DNA from: Coriobacteriales bacterium
Lineage (GTDB): Bacteria; Actinomycetota; Coriobacteriia; Coriobacteriales; UBA8131
Reading direction: 5' to 3'
NCBI GenBank assembly: GCA_031288185.1
Contig: JAITRZ010000048.1
Location: forward strand, 31,307-95,306
DNA: 64,000 nt
Every line of letters begins with the position of its first letter. Position 1 is the first letter of the stretch. The notes under the pieces are model-generated. The model was given only the letters and a program-made list of their open reading frames with translations, made no database searches and was not told the origin of the DNA. A program made the translations under genes and the position numbers. Shown piece after piece: positions 4,632 through 50,080 of this stretch.

Positions 4632-5252
4632 TTAACTGCTCATAAGGTGATACACCACGTAACCCGCATTTGGATCGAGCGTGCTTGTCCCATCTATCTT
4701 GATGGCATCATGCAGATCCTGGGTATACACGAGCCCACCCACACGGCTCAACCCGTAGGTCACCACAACCGTGGGATCTCCCGGTTTGCGACCTTCAGGA
4801 TAGACCATAAATGCGTCAGCGGTTAGCGCAGTCACATCCGAGCCAAGAGGGGCCACAAAGTGGACATGGAAGCGCATGTTGGTGGCTCCAAGCCCTATGA
4901 CATCGTTCATGAAAGTTCTCGAATACCCGGTAGCTAAGGTCGAAAGATCGGCGAGACTAAAGCGTTTTACAACAAACGCGGTGATGTCTGTCATCCCAGG
5001 CGCCCACCCGGTTGTGAAGTATCCTGCAGCATCCCCTGAACTGAATTTTCCGGCAGCATAGGCTTCATCAAGTACGGAGCGAGTTGCCTGCACAATGTCT
5101 CTAGCCTCGGCGATGTACTGCTCATCCTGCGCCTTCGCTATATAGCCCGTAAGCGCGGGGATGGCTATGGCGAGCAGTATGCCCAGGATAACAATAACAA
5201 CGATAAGCTCTACCAGGGTAAAACCGGTGCGTCTTTGTGAGGTTCCTCGCAC
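4632..5252 (-). CDS. Prepilin-type N-terminal cleavage/methylation-domain protein (pilin-like), locus 1
   Basis: Class III signal MRGTSQRRTG|FTLVELIVVIVILGILLAIAIPALTGYI (G-1, F+1, E+5). GTG at 5252 with GGGAGG 6 nt upstream. The frame stays open upstream to 5282 and, apart from one TGA, up to the ATG at 5606. Confidence 0.7.
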   Translation of the reverse strand: MRGTSQRRTGFTLVELIVVIVILGILLAIAIPALTGYIAKAQDEQYIAEARDIVQATRSVLDEAYAAGKFSSGDAAGYFTTGWAPGMTDITAFVVKRFSLADLSTLATGYSRTFMNDVIGLGATNMRFHVHFVAPLGSDVTALTADAFMVYPEGRKPGDPTVVVTYGLSRVGGLVYTQDLHDAIKIDGTSTLDPNAGYVVYHLMSS

Positions 5253-5369
5253 AGGGAGCCTCCCGTGAGCTCCGCAGAGCAAGGCACCCTGGTGAGGGGA
5301 TGCAGGGGAATCAACATTACTGAGGCGAGGAGGTCGAGGACTGTCTGAGCCGGCACCCCCTGTGCGAGG
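5245..5369. repeat. Perfect 12-bp inverted repeat, CCTCGCACAGGG (5245-5256) / CCCTGTGCGAGG (5358-5369), locus 1
   Basis: Read directly from the sequence. The arms are 101 bp apart. The pilin-proximal arm contains the GTG start candidate. Confidence 0.9.
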
Positions 5370-5372
5370 GGT

Positions 5373-5606
5373 TCAAGCTAAGACAGTGCGGCTTAAACCG
5401 TCACCAGGGGCAGTGCCCTCTGTGCGCGATGCCCACGCAGCCGGTGCTTCTTGTGTTCGAATTTGTGCTATCTCAGATAACAAAAAACCGCTGGGCGCAT
5501 AAGCCTGGGCGGCGTCTTTGGCGCGTACACTCGCGCCCTCATAGATGTTGGTGGATGGGAGAAGAGCTAAGCTACGAGCCCCCCCCCCCGGCGAAATTTG
5601 TGACAT
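5373..5606 (-). CDS. Leader ORF (77 codons) containing a G11 tract, upstream of pilin-like locus 1
   Basis: AAAGGAG-N6-ATG, then TCA CAA ATT TCG CC + G11. It translates as MSQISPGGGARSLALL...SRTVLA and ends at a TGA 3 nt before the inverted-repeat arm. Whether it is translated is unproven. Confidence 0.4.
   Translation of the reverse strand: MSQISPGGGARSLALLPSTNIYEGASVRAKDAAQAYAPSGFLLSEIAQIRTQEAPAAWASRTEGTAPGDGLSRTVLA
5579..5589 (-). repeat. Homopolymer tract, 11 C on plus strand (G11 on the coding strand), locus 1
   Basis: Counted directly: cc at 5579-5580 plus nine c at 5581-5589. Confidence 0.95.
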
Positions 5607-6010
5607 GTTTTACTCCTTTCAGATTGCCTGTTGTGGTGCCTGTCTTGGTGGTGCTTTGTCTTGATGCCTGCCTTACCTGCTTTTTCTGACAGCGCGTAGT
5701 GTAGCACAAGCGCAGGAGTGTGTCACCAGAGGTGTGTCACGCCTGTGCGTGGGTGGAGGCACATGGCGGATATATGCTACACTGGCGCTTTGTGTTGCTG
5801 AACTCTTAAGTGGTAGAACTGGCTTTGGCCTGGGGCCGCCTTATTGGCTGTTTCCCGTTTTTATGTTACAACGTTGCACAGGGCAGGAAGGCGCCACTGG
5901 TATCCTCTGACCATCGGGTGCCTCTCACCAAGGCCGTTGGTTGTGCCCGTTGCATCATGCTGGCCGCACCACAGTTTAAGACCAGGAAGAAATAGAGAAG
6001 GCACAGCATA

Positions 6011-23485: not shown

Positions 23486-25279
23486 CTATTGTTTCCAGTT
23501 AGCGTCAAGTGTACTCCAGTCTGCTCCGCTACTAAAGCTGGCGCCAAAGGTATCTTTATCGCTCGCAGGCACGTTATTGCCGTTGATGATACTTGTTGCC
23601 GTGCGGGTTTGTGCGGTGGCGATATCAAGGAAAGTGCCGGTGAAGACCGTCGCTTTATTGAGCTCAGTATCGCTCAGTTTTGGGAAGGTAAACACAGAAT
23701 TTACCTGAAAGATGAACACACCACTCATGGAACCCCGAGAAAACATCCGCTCACAAAAGTTGCTGTCTACGGTTGTTATGTTTTGGGGCAGGCTAAATAC
23801 ACTATTCATCGTAAAGGCAGTACCGTAGATATGAAACATGCCAAAGCAGAAGGTTTCTCCTGTAGACGTAATGCCCGAAGGGATAGTGAAAATTGAGTTC
23901 ATGTTAAAGGCGTCACCATCGGCATTGGAAAACATCATTGCGCAGAAACCACCTCCTACAGCACCTGTTATCTTTTGGGGCAGGTTAAAGATGCTATTCA
24001 TCGTAAAGGTGTCGCCCCACACGCCACGAAACATACCGCTGCAAAAATTTCCAGGTGCACCTGTTATCTTCTGGGGCAGGTTAAAGCTTGCACCCATGTT
24101 AAAAGCGGCTCCATTACATCCTAAAAACATATTGTTGCAAAAGTAAACTCCCACGGTATCTATGCTCTGGGGAATAGTAAAGGCATCTCCCATCGTAAAG
24201 AAGTTGCCGCCACAACCCCAAAACATCTCATTGGCGTAGTAGTTACCCGCGTTGTTTTCTGAGACATTCATACCCCTTTCAGGAAGGGGGCTTATAAGGG
24301 TGGCAACTTCAACGCTGGTGCCGGGTGTGTTCCGATACGCAAGGGCTCTAAGCCACTGATAGGTGTTTTCATCCCCTGTGACGTTTTCTTCTATCTTTAT
24401 GGTATGCTCACCGGGTGTGCCAACAGAAACAACAATGCCGGCGGTGTTATTGTTGCTCTGATAGGCGACGGGAAACCCGCTATCGACCGACACAAGCCAG
24501 TTGTATTTGCCTTCTGCACTCCCGCTACTAAATAAGCCGACTGTTGGTATGGTATGGGTGGTGCCCGCGGTCTGAACCATAAAGGAGAAAGACTCCAGAG
24601 TGGTGCCATAGGTTAGAGAGTCTTGTGAGGATTCATTTTTCAGGCGAAAACCGAGAAGTTTGTTGCTTTCATCAAAGCGTATGTCTACGATAGACCACTC
24701 AGTTGGGTCAAGATTGAGTTTGGCATATTCCTCTACAATCCCCAGCCAGGTTTCAGCAGTATAAGGAAAGAGGCTTGGTTTGTAAGGGGCAGGGGGATGG
24801 GTGAGGTTTTTGGCTGCGTCTGTGGCATTTGCTGGAGGTTTAACAAGGGCGCTGTTCCCTATAAGCCCATCAGCATATCTTTCTGTTGCCCAGGTTTGTA
24901 GCGCTTTTGCGATGGTGTCAGTGTAGGCTTGTTCTTTTATAGCTCCTGCCTTTTGTATATACCCTGTAAGCGCGGGTATGGCTATGGCGAGTAGGATGCC
25001 CAAAATGACAATGACAACTATCAGTTCTACGAGAGTAAAACCTTTAGGGTTAGTTTGTCTATGTATTTGTGGTGGGTCTTGTGCAGCGCCTCGCACAGGG
25101 GGCATCCGGTGAGTTCCACGGGCCGAGGAGCCCTGTTGATGGATCGAAGGGAATTTGCACGCAACGTTATCGAGGCAACGAGGACGAGGACTGTTTGAGC
25201 TGGCGTTCCCTGTGCGAGGTGCCCACGCGGCGACAGTCCCAGCGAGGTCGTTCTTTCCAAGAGATGAATCCGCATACAA
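23486..25279 (-). CDS. Pilin-like (class III signal) surface protein with a C-terminal array of roughly 26-residue repeats, locus 2
   Basis: NPKG|FTLVELIVVIVILGILLAIAIPALTGYI. About eight repeats of the form FCxxMFxGxxGxAFxMxSxFxLPQxITG span roughly 23644-24247. The open frame has no good start of its own at 25279. It joins the RBS-ATG at 25403 only if the G tract is 11, not 12. Confidence 0.75.
   Translation of the reverse strand: MYADSSLGKNDLAGTVAAWAPRTGNASSNSPRPRCLDNVACKFPSIHQQGSSARGTHRMPPVRGAAQDPPQIHRQTNPKGFTLVELIVVIVILGILLAIAIPALTGYIQKAGAIKEQAYTDTIAKALQTWATERYADGLIGNSALVKPPANATDAAKNLTHPPAPYKPSLFPYTAETWLGIVEEYAKLNLDPTEWSIVDIRFDESNKLLGFRLKNESSQDSLTYGTTLESFSFMVQTAGTTHTIPTVGLFSSGSAEGKYNWLVSVDSGFPVAYQSNNNTAGIVVSVGTPGEHTIKIEENVTGDENTYQWLRALAYRNTPGTSVEVATLISPLPERGMNVSENNAGNYYANEMFWGCGGNFFTMGDAFTIPQSIDTVGVYFCNNMFLGCNGAAFNMGASFNLPQKITGAPGNFCSGMFRGVWGDTFTMNSIFNLPQKITGAVGGGFCAMMFSNADGDAFNMNSIFTIPSGITSTGETFCFGMFHIYGTAFTMNSVFSLPQNITTVDSNFCERMFSRGSMSGVFIFQVNSVFTFPKLSDTELNKATVFTGTFLDIATAQTRTATSIINGNNVPASDKDTFGASFSSGADWSTLDANWKQ
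25089..25219. repeat. Perfect 12-bp inverted repeat, CCTCGCACAGGG (25089-25100) / CCCTGTGCGAGG (25208-25219), locus 2
   Basis: Read directly from the sequence. The arms are 107 bp apart. Confidence 0.9.
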
Positions 25280-25374
25280 AAAACCGCCTGGCGCACGGGC
25301 CTGGGCGGCATCTTTGGCGCGTACATTTGCGCCCTCATAGGTGCTGGTGGACTGAAGGAGAGCTAAGCTATGAG

Positions 25375-25386
25375 CCCCCCCCCCCC
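25375..25386 (-). repeat. Homopolymer tract, 12 C on plus strand (G12 coding strand), locus 2
   Basis: Counted directly: six c at 25375-25380 plus six c at 25381-25386. Confidence 0.95.
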
Positions 25387-25647
25387 GGCGAAATTTGTGA
25401 CATGTTTTACTCCTTTCAGATAGCCTGTCTTACCTGTCTTTTGTGATAGCACGTAGTATAGCACGCCGCAGGGAAGGGTGCATGCGGGACATTTTGTTTT
25501 AGCTTGGAGTATGTCACCTTGTAAATGGGGTACAGAAGAACCCATATTGCAGCACAAAAGAACCGACAGGCTGTGTCGCTGGTCGCTGCCGCGTCACCGT
25601 ACATGCTGTCTTTGCCTAGCGGCATAGGTGGGCGCTATAATGCGAGT

Positions 25648-25863
25648 ATGAATACAAATCAGATCATAGCCATGTGGGCAAGCAACATCATACTTGACTA
25701 TGCGGCGGACAAGGCGGTTCAGGTAGATGAACTGCCACAGCTTGTGGAGAAGCACAAACTCGCGGCTTTTTTGATTGATAACTACGAGTTGTTCCATCTG
25801 TACCCCGATGCAGCAGTGTTCGATGAAATCGATAAGGAAATTGCGAGAGCGGCCGATGGCTGA
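25648..25863 (+). CDS. DUF3791-like small helical protein
   Basis: MNTNQIIAMWASNIILDYAADK... It sits directly upstream of, and overlaps, a DUF3990-like gene, which is a commonly seen pairing (recalled). Confidence 0.6.
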   Translation: MNTNQIIAMWASNIILDYAADKAVQVDELPQLVEKHKLAAFLIDNYELFHLYPDAAVFDEIDKEIARAADG

Positions 25864-26362
25864 ACTGCTTTATCACGGTTCTACGGTTCTGGTAGAGCAT
25901 GCCAACTTATCATTGGCGAATCCTAAACGTGATTTTGGCGTGGGTTTTTATACCACCTCATCTTATGAGCAGGCAGTCCGTTTTAGTAAGATTGTGGCCA
26001 GAAGGTTAGGAAGTGCCCAGGGCGTGGTCAACAGGTATTCCTTTAGGGCGGTCAACGATCTCGTCGTCCTTCGGTTTGAGCGCGCAGATCAGGAGTGGTT
26101 AGACTTTGTACTTTCAAACCGTAGGCATACCGCCGGATCCAAAAACCCTCCAAATGGGGATCTGATTATCGGCCCAGTCGCAAATGACCAGGTGGGGCGC
26201 ACTTTGAATCTCTTGGCAACCGGCGCATACGGTGACCCAAATTCAAACAGGGCAAAAAGTTTCGCCTTGTCCCTACTGATGCCGGAGAATCTGACCGATC
26301 AGTGGGTATTCAAGACTGAAAAGGCCGTACAATGTCTCGAATTTTTGGGAGCTGATGAATAG
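25856..26362 (+). CDS. DUF3990-like protein with a PARP-like H-Y-type ADP-ribosyltransferase signature
   Basis: MAELLYHGS ... DFGVGFYTTSSYEQAVRFS parallels the PARP WHGS ... FGKGIYFAD block. The start overlaps the upstream stop. Confidence 0.65.
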   Translation: MAELLYHGSTVLVEHANLSLANPKRDFGVGFYTTSSYEQAVRFSKIVARRLGSAQGVVNRYSFRAVNDLVVLRFERADQEWLDFVLSNRRHTAGSKNPPNGDLIIGPVANDQVGRTLNLLATGAYGDPNSNRAKSFALSLLMPENLTDQWVFKTEKAVQCLEFLGADE

Positions 26363-26567
26363 GAACTCTGACAATCCCGCTCTTATCAGATTGCTGACCG
26401 CGAATATCATCGGATACCTGGCGGCCGAATATTCGCATGAGCACGGTCTGCGGCTGGCAGAAGGAATGCAGCATGTGCTGGATTCTCCACTCTACCCAAA
26501 GCTCATGGATTCGGCAAATGTCCTTTTCGAGGAAAGCCTGCCTTTGCTCTATGAGCAGATTTGCTAA
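26355..26567 (+). CDS. Second DUF3791-like small helical protein
   Basis: 70 aa. Overlaps the DUF3990-like gene's stop by 8 nt. Confidence 0.55.
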   Translation: MNRNSDNPALIRLLTANIIGYLAAEYSHEHGLRLAEGMQHVLDSPLYPKLMDSANVLFEESLPLLYEQIC

Positions 26568-26633
26568 GAAAGCACCGATGTACTCCCGTCGCGTCACGTG
26601 GAGAGGCAAAGGAAGGTTGTTTGTCCCGGCCCT

Positions 26634-28445
26634 TTAGTTGTCAATCCTCAAGAGAGCCATAAAGGCTTCCTGGGGCACCTCAACATTGCCAATACTTTTC
26701 ATGCGCTTTTTACCGGCTTTCTGCTTTTCCAACAGTTTGCGCTTGCGGGTGATGTCGCCACCATAACATTTGGCTAAAACATCCTTACGCCGGGCTTTGA
26801 CCGTCGTGCGAGCCAGTATGCGGCCACCCACCGCCGCCTGTATTGGCACCTCAAACAGCTGGCGAGGAATAATCTCCTTTAGCTTGGTGGTGAGCGCGTT
26901 GCCGCGCTCATACGCTTTTTCTCTGGGCAAAATGAAACTTAGGGCATCCACCGGCTTGCCGGCCAACAGGATGTCCAAACGCACCAGATCGGCGGGTTCA
27001 TAGCTGCTAAATTCGTAGTCGAGGGTAGCATATCCACGGGTGCGGCTCTTGAGTTGGTCAAAGAAGTCAAGGATCAGCTCGCTTAAGGGTATACGCCATT
27101 TCATTTCCACAGTTTTAGGCGAAAGATACTGCATGGTTTGAAAGACGCCACGACGAGAGATGCTTAACTCCATCACTGCGCCTACATAATCCGGAGGAAT
27201 CAGGATGGTCACGGCCAGGAACGGTTCTTCAATGCGATCAATGCTGCTTGTGTCTGGCAGATCCTGAGGAGTATGCAAAGAAAGCATCGGCCCCTGTGTG
27301 GTATAGACGTGATATTCCACGCTGGGAGAGGTGGCCAGAAGCTCCAGATTGAACTCCCGCTCCAGGCGCTCCTTAACCACCTCCAGGTGTAGAAGTCCCA
27401 GCAGGCCCACCCTAAAGCCAAATCCCAGGGCGTGACTGGTTTCCGGCTCGTAGACCAGCGCCGGATCGTTTAACGTCAACTTGGCCAGGGCCTCGCGCAG
27501 TGCTTCATATTGGTCGCCATCCAGGGGATACAGGCCGGTAAAAACCATCGGCTTGATGTCTCGGTAGCCAGGCAAGGGTTCTCTGGCACCATTTTTGGCC
27601 AGCGTCACGGTGTCGCCAACCTTAACAACGCGAGGATCCTTCAAGCCGGTGATCAAATAGCCAACCTCTCCGGCCGTCAGACTGTCCACAGCCTCATTGG
27701 CTGGACGACGCACTCCCACCTCTTCAACCTGGGTTAGGGCGCCCGTTGCCATCAAACTGGTGCGTTGGCCGCGCACGAGCCGTCCCTCAATCACCCTCAC
27801 CAGGGCTACCACACCACGGTAAGGATCAAAGTAGGAGTCAAAAATCAGAGCTCGTAGTGTCTGTTCAGCAGTACCAGCAGGCGGACGAACGCGCTGGATG
27901 ATCGCCTCCAGGAGTTCAGGAACACCCGCGCCAGTCTTGGCGGAGGCTAAGATGGCATCATCGGCTGGCAAAGCCAATCCTTCTTCAATCTCGGCGCGCG
28001 CCCGTTCTATATCGGCGGCAGGCAGATCAATTTTGTTAATAAGAGGGATAATATCCAGACCGGCGTTAATGGCCAGGGTAGCATTGGCGAGAGTCTGAGC
28101 CTCAACACCCTGGCTGGCATCTACCACCAACACCGCGCCCTCACAAGCAGCCAGCGACCGGGATACCTCGTAGGTAAAATCAACGTGGCCGGGCGTGTCA
28201 ATCAGATTAAGTTGGTAGGTTTGACCATCCAGCGCGGTGTAGAGCACACGCACTGCCTGGGCCTTGATGGTAATACCGCGTTCTCGCTCAATGTCCATGG
28301 AGTCCAGTACCTGTTCAACCATGTCGCGCTCGGACAGCGTATGGGTATATTCCAACACACGATCAGCAAGCGTTGACTTGCCATGGTCAATATGGGCGAT
28401 AATGCAGAAATTACGAATGTGTAAACGATCCACCAGCTGGGCCAA
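26634..28445 (-). CDS. lepA: Translation elongation factor 4 (LepA)
   Basis: [28 protein letters not shown], and the LepA-specific C-terminal domain. Confidence 0.95.
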
Positions 28446-28465
28446 ATTTCCTCAGCCCGTACCGC

Positions 28466-30097
28466 TCATTGTTGGTTAGCGACAGTTGCCTGGACATCTT
28501 GCGCTGCAGAAGGAGCAGGCGAAGCAGTATCAACGTGAGGATCCGTAGTGTCTGTGGACTCAGCGCTTTGATCAAGCGCACCGTCGCTGTGGGCAGCAGT
28601 CTCCGCCTTATCCGTGGCACTGACAGCTTCCTCATGCGCAGGAAGAGTGGCCTCGCCCTGCCCTTTCGCATCCTCAGCGAGCATTGGGCGAGAGCGGCTG
28701 CCCCTTCCGGCATCCGCAACCGCCGCCTCGTCCCTGTCTACGAACCCCTGGCTGGCCTGGGCTTCCTGAGCTGTGGCTTTCTCAGCAGGCTCTCTGTCAA
28801 GGGTTGCTGTAGCACTTTTGTCAACGCCCTCGGCTTCTGCTCCGCGTGCGGCTTCCTGAGTCTCGTGCTTTGCCCTGCCTCCCTTGCCGCCCTCATCCTT
28901 CTTTGTCGCGGCCTCGCCCGTCTGGTGCCCTTTCTTTTTGCCCTTGCCCGTTTTGATCATTGACGGCTCAATCTCAGCCACCGTTATCTCCAGGCCCAGA
29001 TCCTCTGCCGCCTGCTTCATAGACAACGACACCCGGCGTCTACCCGGATCAATATCAATCACCTTTACCTGCACAATATCGCCAACCTTCACAACCTGCG
29101 CCGGCGCCACAACATGCCGCTGCGCCATCTCAGAGATATGCACCAGCCCCTCAATGTTGGCACCCAACTCAACAAAGGCACCAAAGGTGACCAGCTTGGT
29201 AACTCGTCCCTCCAGAAGGGACGAAATGGGATAATTTTTGACAAGCGCTCGCCAGGGATCTTCGGTGGTCTGTTTCAAGCCAAGAGAAATGCGCTCACGA
29301 CTGAGATCGACATCCAATACCTCAACATCAACCTCATCGCCTACTTTAACGACCTCTGAAGGATGGTTAACGTGGTTCCAGGACAATTCTGAGATGTGCA
29401 CCAGGCCGTCGATGCCTCCCAGGTCAACAAAGGTACCAAAATCAACGATAGAGGATACCGTACCCTTCAGGCGCATCCCCTTGGTGAGTTTTTCGAGGAT
29501 CTCGGAACGCTCGTTTTTGCGCCCCTCTTCCAAAACCACCCGCCGTGAGAGCACGACATTATTGCGGTTACGATCCATCTCGATAACGCGAGCCTCAATC
29601 TGTTCGCCGGTAAAGGACTCCAGATCCTTGACCCGACGCAGGTCAACCAGCGAGGCAGGCAAAAAGCCGCGCAGGCCGATGTCCACAATTAAACCGCCCT
29701 TAACCACCTCTATGACCTCGCCCACGACACTTTCCGCCGCGTTGAACTTCTGCTCTACATCAATCCAGGCCCGCTCATACTCAGCGCGCCTCTTTGAGAG
29801 GATCAGTCGCCCGTCCTTGTCCTCCTTGAGCAACACCAGTGCCTCTATTTTATCACCTAAGGTAACAATATCGGCTGAGCCGGCATCTTTGCGTATTGAC
29901 AACTCGCGAAGCGGTATAACGCCTTCTGACTTAAAGCCGATGTCTACAAGCACCTCATCACGCTCTATATTGACAACCGTACCCTCAACCAGATCACCAT
30001 CGTCAAAATCAGTGATGGTGCTTTCGATCATTTCGCTGAAGGCAGCATCGTCAATGTCATCCAACTCGATAACTGACGTGTTTACAATCTCGCTCAA
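28466..30097 (-). CDS. rpsA: 30S ribosomal protein S1 with a roughly 170-aa low-complexity C-terminal tail
   Basis: Four S1 (OB-fold) repeats (GxVxxxxxxGxxVDxG patterns), followed by an A/E/K/T-rich tail. Confidence 0.9.
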   Translation of the reverse strand: MSEIVNTSVIELDDIDDAAFSEMIESTITDFDDGDLVEGTVVNIERDEVLVDIGFKSEGVIPLRELSIRKDAGSADIVTLGDKIEALVLLKEDKDGRLILSKRRAEYERAWIDVEQKFNAAESVVGEVIEVVKGGLIVDIGLRGFLPASLVDLRRVKDLESFTGEQIEARVIEMDRNRNNVVLSRRVVLEEGRKNERSEILEKLTKGMRLKGTVSSIVDFGTFVDLGGIDGLVHISELSWNHVNHPSEVVKVGDEVDVEVLDVDLSRERISLGLKQTTEDPWRALVKNYPISSLLEGRVTKLVTFGAFVELGANIEGLVHISEMAQRHVVAPAQVVKVGDIVQVKVIDIDPGRRRVSLSMKQAAEDLGLEITVAEIEPSMIKTGKGKKKGHQTGEAATKKDEGGKGGRAKHETQEAARGAEAEGVDKSATATLDREPAEKATAQEAQASQGFVDRDEAAVADAGRGSRSRPMLAEDAKGQGEATLPAHEEAVSATDKAETAAHSDGALDQSAESTDTTDPHVDTASPAPSAAQDVQATVANQQ

Positions 30098-30217
30098 GGG
30101 TAGCCCCTCTCAATGCCGGGGCCCCACGTCTCATGCTTCTTGTCTAGGTCTTGCGCTTTACAAACATGTCGGGGCCAATATGAACAGACGGTACGCCTTT
30201 TGCGCACACTTAAGAAG

Positions 30218-30246
30218 AGTATAGAGCTTGTGGCGTTTTAGTACAA
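30218..30246 (-). promoter_or_regulatory. Candidate rpsA promoter with an AT-rich upstream element
   Basis: The minus strand reads TTGTAC (30246-30241), a 17-nt spacer, then TATACT (30223-30218). An unusually AT-rich 50 bp lies just upstream (30250-30300). Confidence 0.45.
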
Positions 30247-30493
30247 GCAAATTTTCGAGAAATAGATATAGGTAAATAATTTAGCTATATTGAAGGAAAG
30301 AGCCTCGCTACATGACAAGAGGTTGTGAACAGACAGTGCGAAAACCAATTGTCAAATGCCGAACCGTCTGCCATCCCCTTGTGCCTTGGGGCCGATGAAA
30401 AGGTCAGTCGTGACGGTAGCGGCGCTTCCCTCCTTTCGCAGGAATCACGGGCGATGCAGGTGGGTGGGTGGTTTTGAGCCGCAGTTTTCCTAC

Positions 30494-32155
30494 CTATGAC
30501 AAATCCATGCGAAAAGCGGGGCGGACACCAAACCCGTTGAGCGCATTGTAGTTAGCGGCCAAGCCCGTAGTACCAAGAACCGCAATGACGCTGGAAGCGT
30601 CACCGCGCGGAGAGCGGAGCCAGTATTGAAAGAGAGTGTAAGGGTTTACCCCGGAGGTCTTTCGTGCGTTGGCATCAGCAAAGAGGACAACGCTTGAGCC
30701 GTAGAGGTTCTTGGTGAGATCCATGCTTGCGGCATCGGTGGCAGGGTAGTCCAGCGCGCGAAACACCTCTTCCTGGCTGAGAAAGAACAGCTTCTGGTTG
30801 GTGAGTTCATAGTAGCCGTTGTGTCCGCTGTCAGAGGCACCTCCTGTCTTATAGGGCGCTGTGCGTGCGTCACTAAAGCCTATTCTTGTATAGAGGGTGG
30901 TATCGAGTATCTTTGCCTTGATGTCTGTGAGGTTGTCATAGCTGTAGGCATAGGTGTTGCTATTGAGGGACGCTCTGAGCGTGCTGCCATCCCAGCGGAT
31001 GTCGGTATCCCAGTTGGTGCTGGGATAGTTGATTGATTTGGCATCTATGATGTGTTCTGCGATGACCAGGACATCAGCGTCGCTTTCCTTGTGTAAGATA
31101 CGCCAGTCATAGCCGTTGGCGGCAAAGGTGTCGCCACGCTTCAGGTTCTTGGAGGGCTGGCGGCTCGCCTGAACATCAAAGGTTATGGTGTAGGAATCTG
31201 CGGTGAGAGTGGCCATGCCGGTGGCGCCTGCCGGGATGGACACAGAGGCTGAGGCACCTGATGGTATCAGTGCAGCGCCGGTTGAGCCCGCGTTAAGCTG
31301 CCAGCCTCCTGCAGGAGGTTCACTGGCCGTGAAGTAGCGCACTGTCGGGTATCCCGCAGGGCTCGTGAGGCTGATAATATGGCTCAGGGAGGTCAGATTA
31401 GAGCCGCCTTCACTGTAGAAAAGGTCATAGGGCATCTCCCCGTAGTCTGCAAAGTCACTTATGTCCTTTGTGTTTATGATGCGCAGGCTCAAGAGTTTGT
31501 TTTTGCTATCAAAGGCAACATTCACCAGTCTCCAGTCACCCGTGCGCAGATCTAACTTTGAGTACGAGGCGACAATACCCTCCCAGCTCTCTTCATCTGT
31601 CGTACCACCGTAGGAGGCAGGGTCAACCGGGTCAGAGGCATTTTCCAAGGGGTCAGCGGCATCAGGAACTACTAGGGCTATCTGTCCTATGAGGTTTTGT
31701 GCCAGTCTCTCTGCGGCCCAGGTTTGGATGGCTTTAACAGAGGTGTTGAGGTCTGCTTCTTTTTTTACGCTTCCTGCTTTTCCTATGTATCCCGTAAGGG
31801 CAGGTATGGCTATAGCAAGGAGGATACCTAAGATAACTATCACTACGATAAGTTCTACTAAGGTAAAACCTTCAGGGTGAGCTATCCTGCGGGTGTATGG
31901 AGGGTCTTGTGTAGCCCCTCGCACAGGGAACGTCCGGTGAGTTCCGCAGACCGAGGAGCCAGGTTGTGGGGCCGCAGGATAGGTAGAGCTACCAAGGCGA
32001 CGAGGTCGCAGAGTGTTTGAGTCGGCATCCCCTGTGTGAGGAGCCCACGCTAAGACGGTGCGGCTTAAACCGGCACCAGGGGCAGTTCTCCCTGTGCGTG
32101 GGGCCCACGCGGCCAGTGCTTCTTGTGTTCCCATTTGTGCTATCTCAGATAACAA
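30494..32155 (-). CDS. Pilin-like (class III signal) surface protein with a DUF6273-like C-terminal domain, locus 3
   Basis: HPEG|FTLVELIVVIVILGILLAIAIPALTGYI. The N-terminal roughly 170 aa after the signal are homologous to locus 2. The C-terminus (WRILHKE...LFFLSQEEV...YWLRSPRG...GVRPAFRMDL) resembles DUF6273 (recalled). The open frame joins the RBS-ATG at 32279 only if the G tract is 11. Confidence 0.75.
   Translation of the reverse strand: MLSEIAQMGTQEALAAWAPRTGRTAPGAGLSRTVLAWAPHTGDADSNTLRPRRLGSSTYPAAPQPGSSVCGTHRTFPVRGATQDPPYTRRIAHPEGFTLVELIVVIVILGILLAIAIPALTGYIGKAGSVKKEADLNTSVKAIQTWAAERLAQNLIGQIALVVPDAADPLENASDPVDPASYGGTTDEESWEGIVASYSKLDLRTGDWRLVNVAFDSKNKLLSLRIINTKDISDFADYGEMPYDLFYSEGGSNLTSLSHIISLTSPAGYPTVRYFTASEPPAGGWQLNAGSTGAALIPSGASASVSIPAGATGMATLTADSYTITFDVQASRQPSKNLKRGDTFAANGYDWRILHKESDADVLVIAEHIIDAKSINYPSTNWDTDIRWDGSTLRASLNSNTYAYSYDNLTDIKAKILDTTLYTRIGFSDARTAPYKTGGASDSGHNGYYELTNQKLFFLSQEEVFRALDYPATDAASMDLTKNLYGSSVVLFADANARKTSGVNPYTLFQYWLRSPRGDASSVIAVLGTTGLAANYNALNGFGVRPAFRMDLS
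31917..32101. repeat. Inverted repeat set at locus 3: CCTCGCACAGGG (31917-31928) versus CCCTGTGTGAGG (32030-32041) and CCCTGTGCGTGG (32090-32101)
   Basis: Read directly from the sequence. Each distal arm has one mismatch, and the upstream unit is duplicated. Confidence 0.85.
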
Positions 32156-32250
32156 AAAACCGCCTGGCGCACGGGCCTGGGCGGCGTCTTTGGCGCGTAC
32201 ACTCGCGCCCTCATAGGTGTTAGTGGATGGGAGAAGAGCGAAGCTATGAG

Positions 32251-32262
32251 CCCCCCCCCCCC
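32251..32262 (-). repeat. Homopolymer tract, 12 C on plus strand (G12 coding strand), locus 3
   Basis: Counted directly: ten c at 32251-32260 plus two c at 32261-32262. Confidence 0.95.
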
Positions 32263-32686
32263 GGCGAAATTTGTGACATGATTTGCTCCTTTCAGATTAA
32301 CTGTTTTGATGTCTGTTTTGGTAATGCGTGTCTTAGTGGTGCCTGTCTTGGTGCCTATCTTGCCTGTCTTTTGCGGCAGCACGCAGTGTAGCACAGGCGT
32401 GGGCAAAAGGACACAAGCGCCTAGGGACGTGTCCCACGCGACACAAGGCAAAGAGATGCGCACAGGGAAGCGGCACACCGACGGGGAGAAGCATGCGAGG
32501 GGGGGGCGGTCGCCTGTGTTGCAAGGTTGTCAGCCCTGCCAGAGGAGCGCACGCCCTGTTTTTGATGATGCCAACAACAAGGGCCGGATACAGAGCGCCG
32601 CCTTGGGGAAGTTATTTTTAAGTACCATTCAAACGGGCCGGTTTTGCCCCTCGCGTGACAGTTCCCCAAGGCGACTGCGCGGCTAC

Positions 32687-42346: not shown

Positions 42347-44260
42347 ATGCCTCGAATCTCTGCCCTGTTGACCGCTGAAAAACGCTGTCTACTCGACCCC
42401 GCCACCGCTAAGCGCGTCGCCACCGCCGACCCGGCAGACACACGCGACACCGGCGACGACAGCGACGCGTCCGATGCCGCTGGCACCGCCGCAGACAGGG
42501 ACACATCGCACGCAACGGGCAACCTGGATGGTAGAGAGATTGGCAAACAGCCTCATGTAGGCAGGGGCGCATCACACGCAACGGGCAACGGCGCGCTTCA
42601 CGCGTCGATCTCAAGGGCGCTTGCAGGCAAGGGCGTGTCCCACGCTATAGGCAACGGTGCTCCTGTTGGCGCAGGCAACACAAACGAGGCTGACACCCTC
42701 ACCATCGCCTATCGCCTGGAGGCAACGGAGTCCAACGACACGGCGGACACTTCGCGCGTTGAGCACCTGCAATACCAGGGAATCCTCGCGACCATTGGGT
42801 TTGCGCTGTACTTTGCCTGGGAACTGTTGGGGATCTTTGGCATGCTCCTCCCCCTTGCCACCTACCTGCCCCTGCAGGAAGCCGTAATCGCCCGCATGAT
42901 TTTTCTTATCTGCATCGCCATCTCGCTAACCGCCGCGTATCTGCTGGCTGACCGGCTGCTCAAACGCTGTGATCTGCTGTTTTCTGTGGGCACACTGCTT
43001 TCTTGCGTTCCTATCATCATCGCTCTTGTCAGCTTCACCTCAGAAGTTAGGATACCCATCGGCATTGTAGCCTTCGGGTGGATCTGCCTGGGCATCTCCT
43101 TTAGCTCGCTGATGCTGTATTGGGGTAGTTTCTTTAGCCTTGTCCCCACGCGCTACACGCGCGTCGCCATCGTCTCCGCCTCCACCGGCGGAACCTTCCT
43201 CTTTATCATCGTCGCCTGTATAGCGTCTGAATCGATCTTTTTGCTCAGCTACGCTCTGCTCGCCGCACTGTCTTTGGCGCTCGCCTACTATCTGTCCCTT
43301 AAAATCAGGCCGCAGATGGAGCTTTCCAGCCAGCATTTCTGGCCCATACCCCCCACCACCTGGAAGCGCGGGCTTTCCATTGGCTCGCACAGCCTGGCGC
43401 ATGGTTTTGTGGTCACTGCGCTGTTTCATATGGGATTTGAGGCGGTCATCATCGGGTGCGCCAGCGGTTTGATTGGCGACGCGCTGTGCTTTGTTTGGCT
43501 GCGCAACAAGAAAATTGACGTTGATGTCAGTCTCTTTCAGCGCATCACCTTGCCTCTCATCCTCTTGGGACTGCTGCTCTTTCCCGTTGTCAGCGACACG
43601 GGGCGCCTGCTCCGTTGTTGTCTCATCAACATCTGCCTCGCACACTTTATCACGATGACCTGGGCAAATTCCGCCGTTGCCAACTCTGAGTTCAAGTTTC
43701 ACCCGCTCAAAGCCTTCGCCTCCAACCGCATCCCCAACATGCTCGGATTTCTGGTTGGCACGATATACGCGGTGGCCATTTTTTTCTACTTTAGTCTGGA
43801 TACTGGGCAGCTCTATCTGGCGATAGCGGGCATCGTGGTGTTGATAGTCTCCGTCTCCATGATCTATGGCATGGACGACTCCACCATCAAACGGCGACTC
43901 GCCAACCTTTTGACCTACGAGAACAAGGTGGGGATGGGAGTTGGTGATGCACGGGCGGGCGTTGATGGTGGCGGCGCTTCTGGCAGCGCGGAGACCGACG
44001 GTGCCCTCTCAGAAAGAAGAGTGGCCTGGTATCGAATGAAATGTGAGGCGATAGTTGAGCGCTATGACCTCTCGCCGCGCGAGGCGGAGGTGTTCATGCT
44101 GCTGGCGAAAGGTCGCACGGCGGACTATATCGGCTCCAAACTGGTTATCTCCAACTCAACAGCCAAGACGCACATCTATCACATCTACCAGAAATTGGGC
44201 ATTAACACTCAGCAGCGCCTGATGGATATTGTTGAGGATGATGCGGGCGCCGGCGGATGA
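42347..44260 (+). CDS. Membrane-embedded LuxR-family transcriptional regulator (about 10 TM helices plus a C-terminal HTH)
   Basis: C-terminus LSPREAEVFMLLAKGRTADYIGSKLVISNSTAKTHIYHIYQKLG, a long polytopic middle region, and an N-terminus with SHATGN repeats. ATG at 42347 with GGAG upstream. It is divergent from the molybdoenzyme operon. Confidence 0.8.
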   Translation: MPRISALLTAEKRCLLDPATAKRVATADPADTRDTGDDSDASDAAGTAADRDTSHATGNLDGREIGKQPHVGRGASHATGNGALHASISRALAGKGVSHAIGNGAPVGAGNTNEADTLTIAYRLEATESNDTADTSRVEHLQYQGILATIGFALYFAWELLGIFGMLLPLATYLPLQEAVIARMIFLICIAISLTAAYLLADRLLKRCDLLFSVGTLLSCVPIIIALVSFTSEVRIPIGIVAFGWICLGISFSSLMLYWGSFFSLVPTRYTRVAIVSASTGGTFLFIIVACIASESIFLLSYALLAALSLALAYYLSLKIRPQMELSSQHFWPIPPTTWKRGLSIGSHSLAHGFVVTALFHMGFEAVIIGCASGLIGDALCFVWLRNKKIDVDVSLFQRITLPLILLGLLLFPVVSDTGRLLRCCLINICLAHFITMTWANSAVANSEFKFHPLKAFASNRIPNMLGFLVGTIYAVAIFFYFSLDTGQLYLAIAGIVVLIVSVSMIYGMDDSTIKRRLANLLTYENKVGMGVGDARAGVDGGGASGSAETDGALSERRVAWYRMKCEAIVERYDLSPREAEVFMLLAKGRTADYIGSKLVISNSTAKTHIYHIYQKLGINTQQRLMDIVEDDAGAGG

Positions 44261-44308: not shown

Positions 44309-45142
44309 TCAGGCGGTTGTACCCGCTTCCCGGTTGCGCGCGCGGGCCATGTAGGTGTTCCAGACCAGCAGAGAATCCGGGTGGATAAAGCGATGGCGCC
44401 GAATCAGATGTTCCAGGGTAGTTTGAAAGCACTTGAGAAACAAATCCTCCAGGGGCACCTTACCGGCAATAGAGCGCAGCGGCTGGAGGCTGGATTGAGA
44501 ACGTAGGGGCTCAATCATGTCAGCACTATAGATAATCATGTCCAGATCACTCATGTCCGGGGCAGCAGAGGTATGGCGGGCAATGGCCTGGATGATACAG
44601 GCGGGCAACTCAGGATACTCACGGGCTACGGCGCAGGCACCGGTTTGAGCATGAAGCAGGGCCGCCGTTGCTAGGTGCTGCTCAGGAAGCGTAATGCCAA
44701 AATCTGCAGCCCGCGCCAACAACTCGTCATCGGTGTAGTTTTTGTCCCAATCATGCAGGAGGCCGGCGATGCGGGCCTGCTCAAAATCAACGCCATAGAC
44801 GTTAGCCATCAAGGCGGCGATGTCAGAAACACTGATGGAATGCAGCAGGCGAAACCCCGTCAGGCGCTGCTCTAGCTTTTTGCGCGCGTCCCGATATACC
44901 GCCTCATAATCCACGTTGGATGGGGCATTGCCGCTCACCTGATGGATAACCGCCTGCTGGCTGCAGGTCTTGCTCCCTACGCTCGCCTGCTGGCTGCGGG
45001 CCTTGCTCTCTGTGGCCGCTTCGCGGTTGCAGGTCTTATTCCCTGCGGCCGTCTGACGGTTGCGGGTCTTAGGCTCTGCACTCGCTTGAGGGACGTTGGA
45101 TGGATGGTCTGTGGCAGGTGTGGAGTTACGAGAGCTTGGCAT
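44309..45142 (-). CDS. yqeK: HD-domain Ap4A hydrolase YqeK with a repetitive N-terminal extension
   Basis: HSISVSD...LLHDWDK HD motif. It lies immediately downstream of nadD, the conserved pairing. Confidence 0.8.
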   Translation of the reverse strand: MPSSRNSTPATDHPSNVPQASAEPKTRNRQTAAGNKTCNREAATESKARSQQASVGSKTCSQQAVIHQVSGNAPSNVDYEAVYRDARKKLEQRLTGFRLLHSISVSDIAALMANVYGVDFEQARIAGLLHDWDKNYTDDELLARAADFGITLPEQHLATAALLHAQTGACAVAREYPELPACIIQAIARHTSAAPDMSDLDMIIYSADMIEPLRSQSSLQPLRSIAGKVPLEDLFLKCFQTTLEHLIRRHRFIHPDSLLVWNTYMARARNREAGTTA

Positions 45143-50039: not shown

Positions 50040-50080
50040 AGAGAATACAAAGCCCTCTGCGAGGCGAGAGCAGAGGGCTT
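50040..50080 (-). terminator. Hairpin/attenuator between rpmA and obg
   Basis: The minus strand reads AAGCCCTCTGC-tctcgcctc-GCAGAGGGCTT, followed by TGTATTCTCT. Confidence 0.45.

Follow-up and report, generated by a model that had tools for sequence, protein, structure and literature searches.

A poly-G tract, a long open leader and a conserved inverted repeat upstream of three type IV pilin-like genes in a termite-gut Coriobacteriales bacterium

Introduction

Neisseria provides a close described counterpart of the leaders considered here: genic poly-G and poly-C tracts drive translational phase variation of the pilC, pgl and lgt genes, with G tracts of 9-21 (PMC5953494). The present study concerns a 64-kb stretch of DNA from a Coriobacteriales bacterium (GenBank assembly GCA_031288185.1, contig JAITRZ010000048.1, positions 31,307 to 95,306), referred to below as the window. 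Its three loci all lie on the minus strand, each upstream of a type IV pilin-like open reading frame (ORF), and carry in their leaders the 12-nt inverted repeat from which the analysis started. As in Neisseria, a tract of 11-12 G lies within the opening codons of a gene for a surface or pilus-associated protein, the long ORF is in frame with the ATG in a single length class, early stops cutting short the rest, and many contingency loci appear to be present per genome. Unlike the Neisseria genes, these belong to a termite-gut actinobacterium and have an unconstrained leader of 110-127 codons between the tract and the protein. Both a terminator-like hairpin and the inverted repeat lie within this leader, and its 5' module appears to be common to dozens of pilin-like genes that differ in their C-terminal domains.

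Three further systems bear on the repeat itself. Intragenic invertons that bring in a premature stop have been described as a class (10.1101/2023.03.11.532203). Like invertons (fimS, hin, the Bacteroides Mpi targets), the loci have short repeats flanking a coding segment, a flip that would add a stop, and identical arms at many loci; unlike them, they occur in contigs in one orientation only, have no recombinase nearby and enclose an unusually short segment. In MS2 and Qbeta, the long-distance RNA pairing known as 'Min Jou' joins the coat gene with the replicase start and couples downstream to upstream translation. The likeness lies in the geometry, one helix partner covering a downstream start and the other lying ~100 nt away in an upstream translated region. 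The difference is that the upstream and downstream frames are fused at loci 2 and 3, with separate cistrons at locus 1 only, and that the upstream ORF is gated by poly-G; the pairing proposed here is predicted from sequence and folding, with zero covarying pairs. Finally, in the pyrBI and pyrE leaders of E. coli, translation through an intrinsic terminator prevents termination, and nucleotide pools are the input. The loci resemble these leaders in placing a GC-rich hairpin and U-tract inside an ORF with a strong Shine-Dalgarno sequence (SD) and ATG, where a close ribosome would block the hairpin; they differ in that the poly-G tract, through the reading frame, would be the input and that termination is predicted from folding. 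The leader is thus a combination of known kinds, not a new category.

Results

The poly-G tract and the shared 5' module

Alignment of the upstream regions reveals one 5' architecture common to all three loci, a module that is 83% invariant among them. It comprises an extended -10 box, an SD, an ATG, the poly-G tract and a series of hairpins:

25455..25463, minus strand: extended -10 promoter-like box TGCTATACT of locus 2, conserved in three loci
5698-5706, minus strand: extended -10 counterpart TGCTACACT of locus 1, conserved
32385-32393, minus strand: extended -10 counterpart TGCTACACT of locus 3, conserved
25410..25416, minus strand: SD AAAGGAG of locus 2
5613-5619, minus strand: SD AAAGGAG of locus 1
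32286-32292, minus strand: SD AAAGGAG of locus 3
5579..5589, minus strand: poly-G tract of locus 1, 11 G, in frame with leader and pilin
25375..25386, minus strand: poly-G tract of locus 2, 12 G, out of frame; translation from the ATG gives MSQISPGGGGS before a TAG at 25368-25370
32251..32262, minus strand: poly-G tract of locus 3, 12 G, out of frame
25278..25315, minus strand: terminator-like hairpin of locus 2 (predicted fold), AAAGA-GCCGCC..GGC-loop-GCC..GGCGG then U6, inside the leader ORF
5482-5519, minus strand: terminator-like hairpin of locus 1
32154-32191, minus strand: terminator-like hairpin of locus 3
25316-25333, 5520-5537 and 32192-32209, minus strand: conserved hairpin GGCGCG/CGCGCC just upstream of the terminator-like hairpin

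The box has the consensus TGCTAYACT over the three loci, and that at 25455..25463 is a putative promoter. At locus 2 the SD ends 6 nt before the ATG (25401-25403). The start region reads ATG TCA CAA ATT TCG CC and runs into the poly-G tract, 17 nt after the ATG, in codons 6-9 and about 270-350 nt upstream of the arm of the repeat nearest to the pilin. These tracts are the sole homopolymers of at least 9 nt in the 64 kb. The sequence that follows, CTCATAGCTTAGC, supplies stops in the two wrong frames. A tract of 11 G (3n+2) links the ATG to the pilin frame, and locus 1 then reads MSQISPGGGARSL..., whereas with 12 G a stop follows 2 codons past the tract, leaving loci 2 and 3 OFF as assembled. 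The 13-G frame meets a stop within 4 codons at loci 1 and 2; at locus 3 one stop is mutated and the frame runs for 31 codons.

The leaders have two marks of a contingency gene, a homopolymer of at least 9 nt in the 5' end of an ORF and a single length class that gives the full ORF. Tract length varies between 11 and 12 among paralogs, and one contig variant has 13 C, with flanks that are shared among paralogs and so fit no single locus. Because the pilin is in frame with the ATG at 11 G and translation stops early at 12 G, slipped-strand variation of the poly-G tract is, as read from the sequence, the primary ON/OFF switch, with switching itself expected to follow from slippage. The tract is the dominant feature of the leaders. 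It was absent from the preliminary description of this DNA, and as a slipped-strand switch it would already do what the DNA inversion proposed there offers.

Downstream of CTCATAGCTTAGC the module continues with two small conserved hairpins, the terminator-like hairpin with its U6, and then a variable stretch that bears the arms of the repeat. The terminator-like substructure is predicted identically at the three loci, and the differences between loci fall in its loop; with its A-tract, bulged GC-rich stem and U6 it looks like a canonical intrinsic terminator. This hairpin may act as a terminator, which would make transcription read-through depend on translation of the leader.

The stretch from the -10 box to the SD, in the 5' untranslated region (UTR), carries a variable number of AAGACAGGCA(CC)-like repeats of ~12-14 nt: ~5 copies at locus 1 (5620-5700), ~2 at locus 2 (25417-25450) and ~7 at locus 3 (32293-32380).

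The leader is open and runs in phase into the pilin

From the tract, an open frame of 110-127 codons runs in phase into the pilin. The distance from the end of the poly-G tract to the codon for the glycine before the prepilin cleavage site, Gly(-1), is 356, 335 and 383 nt at loci 1, 2 and 3, in each case 2 mod 3, and the indels that distinguish the loci keep the frame. The pilin-continuous frame contains 1, 0 and 0 stops at loci 1, 2 and 3, against 1-6 in the other frames. The full-length leaders of two paralogs, P0001 and P0002, are likewise open. In a drift simulation at 25% neutral divergence, a leader gains about 2.5 stops on average and escapes them all with a probability, P(no stop), of 0.075 per lineage. 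Because the frame stays open, the indels preserve it and drift would give stops, the leader appears to be translated and its frame to be held open by selection.

The peptide itself shows a different pattern. Differences between leaders are spread evenly over the three codon positions, with a nonsynonymous to synonymous ratio of about 3:1, unlike the first 45 codons of the mature pilin, which have a strong third-position bias. This pattern points to a translated spacer whose peptide evolves neutrally.

Locus 1 departs from the other two. Its leader frame is broken by a TGA (5373-5375; TGG in locus 3) one codon upstream of the first arm of the repeat, and its sequence is matched by an independent 2902-nt contig with 0 differences. 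It alone has a strong SD, GGGAGG (5259-5264), which precedes the GTG at 5250-5252 with a 6-nt spacer; at loci 2 and 3 the corresponding GTG follows a weak SD (GGA). Locus 1 therefore resembles a coupled variant of the module with two cistrons. Of the present findings, the poly-G switch and the long open leader are firm; the function of the repeat, discussed below, is what we infer.

The inverted repeat and its conservation

The arms CCTCGCACAGGG/CCCTGTGCGAGG (12 nt) are present at all three loci. The preliminary description gave them on the plus strand; the genes lie on the minus strand, so that the arm with the higher coordinate is upstream in the transcript (distal) and the other is proximal to the pilin:

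5358..5369, minus strand: distal arm of locus 1, perfect; a degenerate additional copy lies at ~5415-5426
5245..5256, minus strand: proximal arm of locus 1, with GTG 5250-5252
25208..25219, minus strand: distal arm of locus 2, CCTCGCACAGGG, reading PRTG
25101..25207, minus strand: inter-arm segment of locus 2, 107 nt, translated in the leader frame and giving a stop when inverted
25089..25100, minus strand: proximal arm of locus 2, CCCTGTGCGAGG, with in-frame GTG 25094-25096 and leader MRGAAQDPPQIHRQTNPKG/FTLVE (here and below, the slash marks the cleavage site)
32090..32101, minus strand: distal arm copy A of locus 3, CCACGCACAGGG, 1 mismatch
32030..32041, minus strand: distal arm copy B of locus 3, CCTCACACAGGG, 1 mismatch giving an A.C pair
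31917..31928, minus strand: proximal arm of locus 3, with in-frame GTG 31922-31924

A search of the whole window for the arms with at most 1 mismatch returns 8 matches against 0.49 expected, a number reached in 0 of 100 shuffles. Seven of the eight make up the three locus sets; the eighth (50053-50064) is partnerless and unrelated. The search recovers the arm pairs of the preliminary description, perfect at loci 1 and 2 and, at locus 3, formed by the proximal arm with each of two one-mismatch copies, and the arms do read in the leader frame as PRTG upstream and PVRG downstream, as it had stated. At locus 3, copy A together with its flanks forms 16 nt that are 94% complementary to the proximal arm, and most paralogs have the canonical base at its mismatch (T32099>A in 131.5 of 141.4 depth). 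The inter-arm lengths are 101, 107 and 101 nt, and 161 nt to the distal-most copy of locus 3, all 2 mod 3.

In a three-locus alignment from the T-run to the pilin start (288 columns; invariant fraction 0.55), the arms are the best two of 277 windows of 12 columns, with 12/12 and 11/12 positions invariant. The segment between them has 68-69% pairwise identity (about 31% divergence) across the three loci. Both of its ends are kept at very high summed depth across paralogs, and only the central ~40 nt are truly variable. The claim that the arms are conserved is thus borne out, and the description of the intervening sequence as poorly conserved was overstated. Because the peptide sequence is unconstrained here, conservation of the arms acts at the nucleotide level. 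The repeat is real and evidently under selection to be maintained in at least the three loci of the window.

Additional locus-specific inverted repeats interleave with the main pair and are not conserved between loci: 31882-31892/31972-31982 at locus 3 (11 nt, perfect) and 5287-5298/5398-5409 at locus 1 (12 nt, 1 mismatch). These may form alternative pairings in the RNA or have arisen by chance.

Size and distribution of the paralog family

The sequence is carried by a single public run, a termite-gut metagenome available as Logan contigs; no RNA run carrying it was found. Word depth in this run is 8-14 in the unique flanks, 300-530 in the 5' module and 680-790 in parts of the inner segment, with high summed depth (300-790) over 25266-25413 and 31934-32023. 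A depth of 300-790, as against 8-14 in the unique flanks, points to several dozen leaders of paralogs, which all seem to belong to one Coriobacteriales genome. Outside its metagenome-assembled genome (MAG), the leader was found in none of 185,579 GTDB species representatives and in no JGI metagenome contig. A DNA pattern of the conserved module had 0 matches in genome and metagenome contigs, and a protein profile of the leader gave pattern matches of which none was confirmed. Among 5.8 billion protein clusters, two protein searches, one of them using a leader-only profile, returned one NCBI Coriobacteriales MAG only.

Genomic neighborhood comparison is consistent with recent expansion. Loci 2 and 3 flank S1-LepA in the window (23486-32480). 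Two relatives (L002 and L003), whose S1 is 83-84% identical, keep the S1-LepA-Dus-HemN synteny, and the pilin genes are absent there. Locus 2 is accompanied by about 9 kb of extra genes: DUF3791, DUF3990, CysK, an Rrf2-family regulator, MetH and two unknown ORFs. Because the family is confined to one MAG and relatives with 83-84% S1 identity have no such loci, it is most plausibly a young, lineage-specific expansion.

Within the family, the arms were compared as protein in 10 paralog proteins of the one NCBI Coriobacteriales MAG. The reading PRTG/PVRG is found in the two perfect loci of the window and in P0130. Single arm changes occur in locus 3 (PHTG), P0001 (PCTG, predicting a G.U pair) and P0131 (PVQG). 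The arms are degenerate in P0006, in P0007 and in three paralogs of a PQQG type, the latter having no GTG. The contig of P0009 starts exactly in the proximal arm and has no upstream sequence.

A proposed long-range RNA helix over the internal GTG

The preliminary description had suggested an RNA helix that occludes the GTG near the pilin. We adopt this reading tentatively, at a probability of roughly 0.4: a long-range RNA helix would mask the internal GTG, pilin synthesis thus following translation of the leader. The geometry of the two arms fits, in that one partner overlaps the GTG and the other lies in the open leader frame (at locus 1, one codon past the stop). At 3/3 loci the GTG of the proximal arm shares the frame of the pilin, and initiation there would give the leaders MRGTSQRRTG/F (locus 1), MRGAAQDPPQIHRQTNPKG/F (locus 2) and MRGATQDPPYTRRIAHPEG/F (locus 3), which have the features of ordinary short basic prepilin leaders ending in Gly. 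The length of the prepeptide accordingly depends on the start, at 10-19 aa from the GTG and about 120-137 aa from the ATG (a typical basic leader has about 5-30 aa). The arm helix is present in both the minimum free energy (MFE) structure and the centroid of the fold of the 411-nt locus 2 leader, as well as in local folds of all three loci (z = -1.75, -1.58 and -3.77), and the arm pair probabilities are 0.94-1.0 at loci 2 and 3. In addition, the PQQG-type paralogs that have no GTG (P0002, P0004 and P0005) also have no complementarity between the arms.

From the observed anatomy, frames and conservation we infer a mechanism in which the helix forms in vivo, the GTG is used, termination occurs and the tract switches. 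The two 12-nt arms would pair in the mRNA. The GTG in the downstream arm could otherwise initiate a short prepilin; at locus 1, the adjoining fold would cover the SD too. In the OFF phase, with no ribosome in the leader, the helix would form and leaky internal initiation would be suppressed. Ribosomes that pass along the leader in the ON phase would melt the helix; at locus 1, the ribosome terminating at the TGA would open it and permit initiation at the GTG. Translation through the leader hairpin would also prevent termination, adding a transcriptional layer. Joined together, these steps would form a two-tier gate in which the poly-G tract admits ribosomes to the spacer ORF and their passage both blocks the terminator and melts the GTG-masking helix; this full version is speculative, and we regard it as rather unlikely.

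Several observations weigh against the helix. Covariation is zero in the three-locus count, in which 11/12 pairs are invariant and the sole change (locus 3) breaks a pair, and the covariation term of RNAalifold is unfavourable (+2.89), invariant pairs being uninformative rather than contrary. The arm changes in paralog proteins (PHTG, PVQG, PQQG, SPTE) are one-sided and mostly pair-breaking, and the arm variants found in contigs (25094 C>T, 25209 C>T and 25217 A>C) show the same pattern. The fold of the whole locus 2 leader is no stabler than those of shuffled sequences (z = -0.03). With the distal arm blocked, the SD-GTG region becomes modestly more accessible in the predictions, from 0.22 to 0.36-0.40, and locus 1 shows no change; there the proximal arm, once more context is folded, prefers the degenerate upstream copy. 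The SDs at loci 2 and 3 are weak, so that the internal initiation left for a helix to suppress may be slight. That paralogs without the GTG also lose complementarity is in part a circular observation, the GTG being inside the arm, and all comparisons are among paralogs of one genome that were possibly homogenised by gene conversion. The suggested helix is compatible with all the observations, among them the in-frame GTG inside the arm and the MFE and centroid folds, and has zero covarying pairs.

Two other RNA-level candidates were rejected. A scan of the window at Rfam gathering thresholds returned 3 tRNAs only, and permissive scans of two leaders gave chance-level matches (E >= 0.39), neither offering a real match to a known RNA family. 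A 9-nt complementarity at locus 2 between the upstream ribosome-binding site and the GFTL codons of the pilin is at chance level and not conserved in locus 3.

Alternative explanations for the repeat

The other proposal of the preliminary description was a DNA inversion switch. It would take the form of an intragenic inverton, in which a recombinase encoded elsewhere flips the 101-107-bp segment and adds a stop to the leader, giving a second switch at dozens of loci. The arms do provide the flanking inverted repeats of an inverton (12 bp, perfect at two loci, one mismatch at the third), identical inverted arms at many loci fit the sites of one global invertase, and invertons of the premature-stop type have precedent, as noted above. 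The inverted reading predicted for locus 2, GGC ATC CGG TGA, is correct, and inversion retains the length and would stop each of the three leaders early. Additional direct copies of the arms, together with paralogs lacking the intervening unit, could also reflect site-specific deletion. The contigs give no sign of inversion. Each arm is crossed by several contigs in the reference orientation, the repeat of locus 1 by one unbranched 2902-nt contig at 12x, and ~100 contigs of the source run, compared in six layouts with the three loci, contain no strand-changing joint or loose end of the inverted type; these are assembled Logan contigs, which drop rare variants, such that a low-frequency inversion could escape. 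The sole joint, a skip of 50 at locus 3, comes from a paralog whose two direct arm copies lie closer together. One orientation is likewise seen in the three loci and the 10 paralog proteins (the protein search being biased towards it), although an active invertase at dozens of loci should leave some in the opposite orientation. No recombinase, integrase or resolvase family occurs among roughly 50 ORFs scanned in the window, which agrees with the earlier remark that none lies next to the loci. A segment of 101-107 bp is short for an invertible one, the centre-to-centre arm spacing (113, 119 and 173 bp) has no constant helical phase, and a second switch would be redundant with the poly-G tract of the same leader. 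With no positive support for it, inversion is very improbable.

It is unlikely, though less so than inversion, that the repeat has no function of its own, having arisen once in an ancestral leader and persisting through recent expansion and gene conversion, with decay where conversion stops. Confinement of the leader to one MAG makes the family young, the 83% invariance of the 5' module suggests homogenisation, and the arms are degenerate, with no compensation, in 5/11 paralogs in which both arms are known. The origin of the repeat needs no selection, because by our estimate chance alone would give ~0.8 perfect 12-bp inverted repeats per 64 kb with arms within 200 bp. Its persistence is harder to explain in this way: 23/24 arm positions are invariant although the inner segments differ by 31%, the arms rank as the top two of the 277 windows, conservation of both partners by chance has a probability of about 1e-4 before correction for window choice, and conversion patches would need to coincide with both arms at three loci. 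Conservation of sequence identity, beyond complementarity, across many paralogs could instead reflect recognition by a protein, with the arms as oppositely oriented sites of a regulator (a DNA operator pair or loop, or RNA) or as an element for RNA processing or stability, such as an RNase III target. Flanks that extend the dyad imperfectly to 15-16 nt at loci 2 and 3, and substitutions with no bias towards preserving a helix, would fit such sites; variable spacing with no helical phasing speaks against a DNA loop, no regulator gene is adjacent, and known RNA families are unmatched. We consider protein recognition quite improbable.

Three types of DNA element were discarded as well. Ends of a MITE or transposon do not fit, the arms occurring elsewhere in the window only once (partnerless, 1 mismatch) and with no consistent target-site duplications. 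An invertible promoter was rejected on the lack of conserved promoter-like hexamers between the arms on either strand, and an attC-like folded site because the inner segment lacks the form of a long imperfect palindrome.

The pilin-like proteins and other features of the window

The type IV prepilin motif G/FTLVELIVV occurs exactly three times in the window in a motif scan, once per locus. All three proteins have the cleavage/methylation motif G/F-T-L-x-E followed by a hydrophobic helix that marks a type IV pilin-like protein, and all match Pfam PF07963 (N_methyl; E = 2.6e-8 to 3.5e-7):

4632..5225, minus strand: Gly(-1) codon 5223-5225 and pilin-like protein of locus 1; PF07963, E = 2.6e-8
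23486..25042, minus strand: Gly(-1) codon 25040-25042 and mature pilin-like protein of locus 2; PF07963, E = 2.7e-8, with the N_methyl motif
30494..31870, minus strand: Gly(-1) codon 31868-31870 and pilin-like protein of locus 3, with C-terminal DUF6273; Pfam PF07963 and PF19789

The C-terminal parts differ, being short at locus 1, built of 32-aa repeats (repeat family D7) at locus 2 and containing DUF6273 at locus 3. The locus 2 repeats, four tandem units of 96 nt (32 aa) at 23774-24201, are FCxxMF...F.M...F.LPQ.IT-like and have no Pfam match; by eye only, they look like surface repeats of the BspA/LRR type. Housekeeping genes surround the loci: ThiT, Era and YbeY; MetH, CysK and an Rrf2-family regulator; and LepA, S1 and a symporter.

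Elsewhere in the window, an exact 35-nt direct repeat (48240-48274/48284-48318, 44 nt start to start) lies between glutamate-5-kinase-like and Obg genes, and tandem repeats of 66 nt and 33 nt occur in a LuxR-family ORF (42493-42655) and an HD-domain ORF (44951-45082), respectively. Positions 1049-1834 encode a CW_7 endolysin-like protein, and the L21 ORF (50398-51348) encodes 316 aa, with the L21 domain confined to the first 100 residues.

Discussion

Taken alone, the inverted repeat is a modest finding; its value is as a handle that exposed the module. The architecture also carries a warning for annotation: NCBI lists the retrievable paralogs as partial or as started at arbitrary internal codons.

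If the reading is true, a long unconstrained translated spacer with a terminator and a start-masking helix could sharpen the switch, an unusual design that would offer a compact natural example of slippage coupled to RNA structure. Were the two-tier gate also to hold, single-base slippage would yield a tight, multi-level ON/OFF control copied before dozens of pilin-like adhesin genes. On the main reading, the repertoire would rank among the largest sets of contingency genes described, with dozens of pilin-like proteins bearing adhesin-like C-termini, each switched independently by its own poly-G tract.

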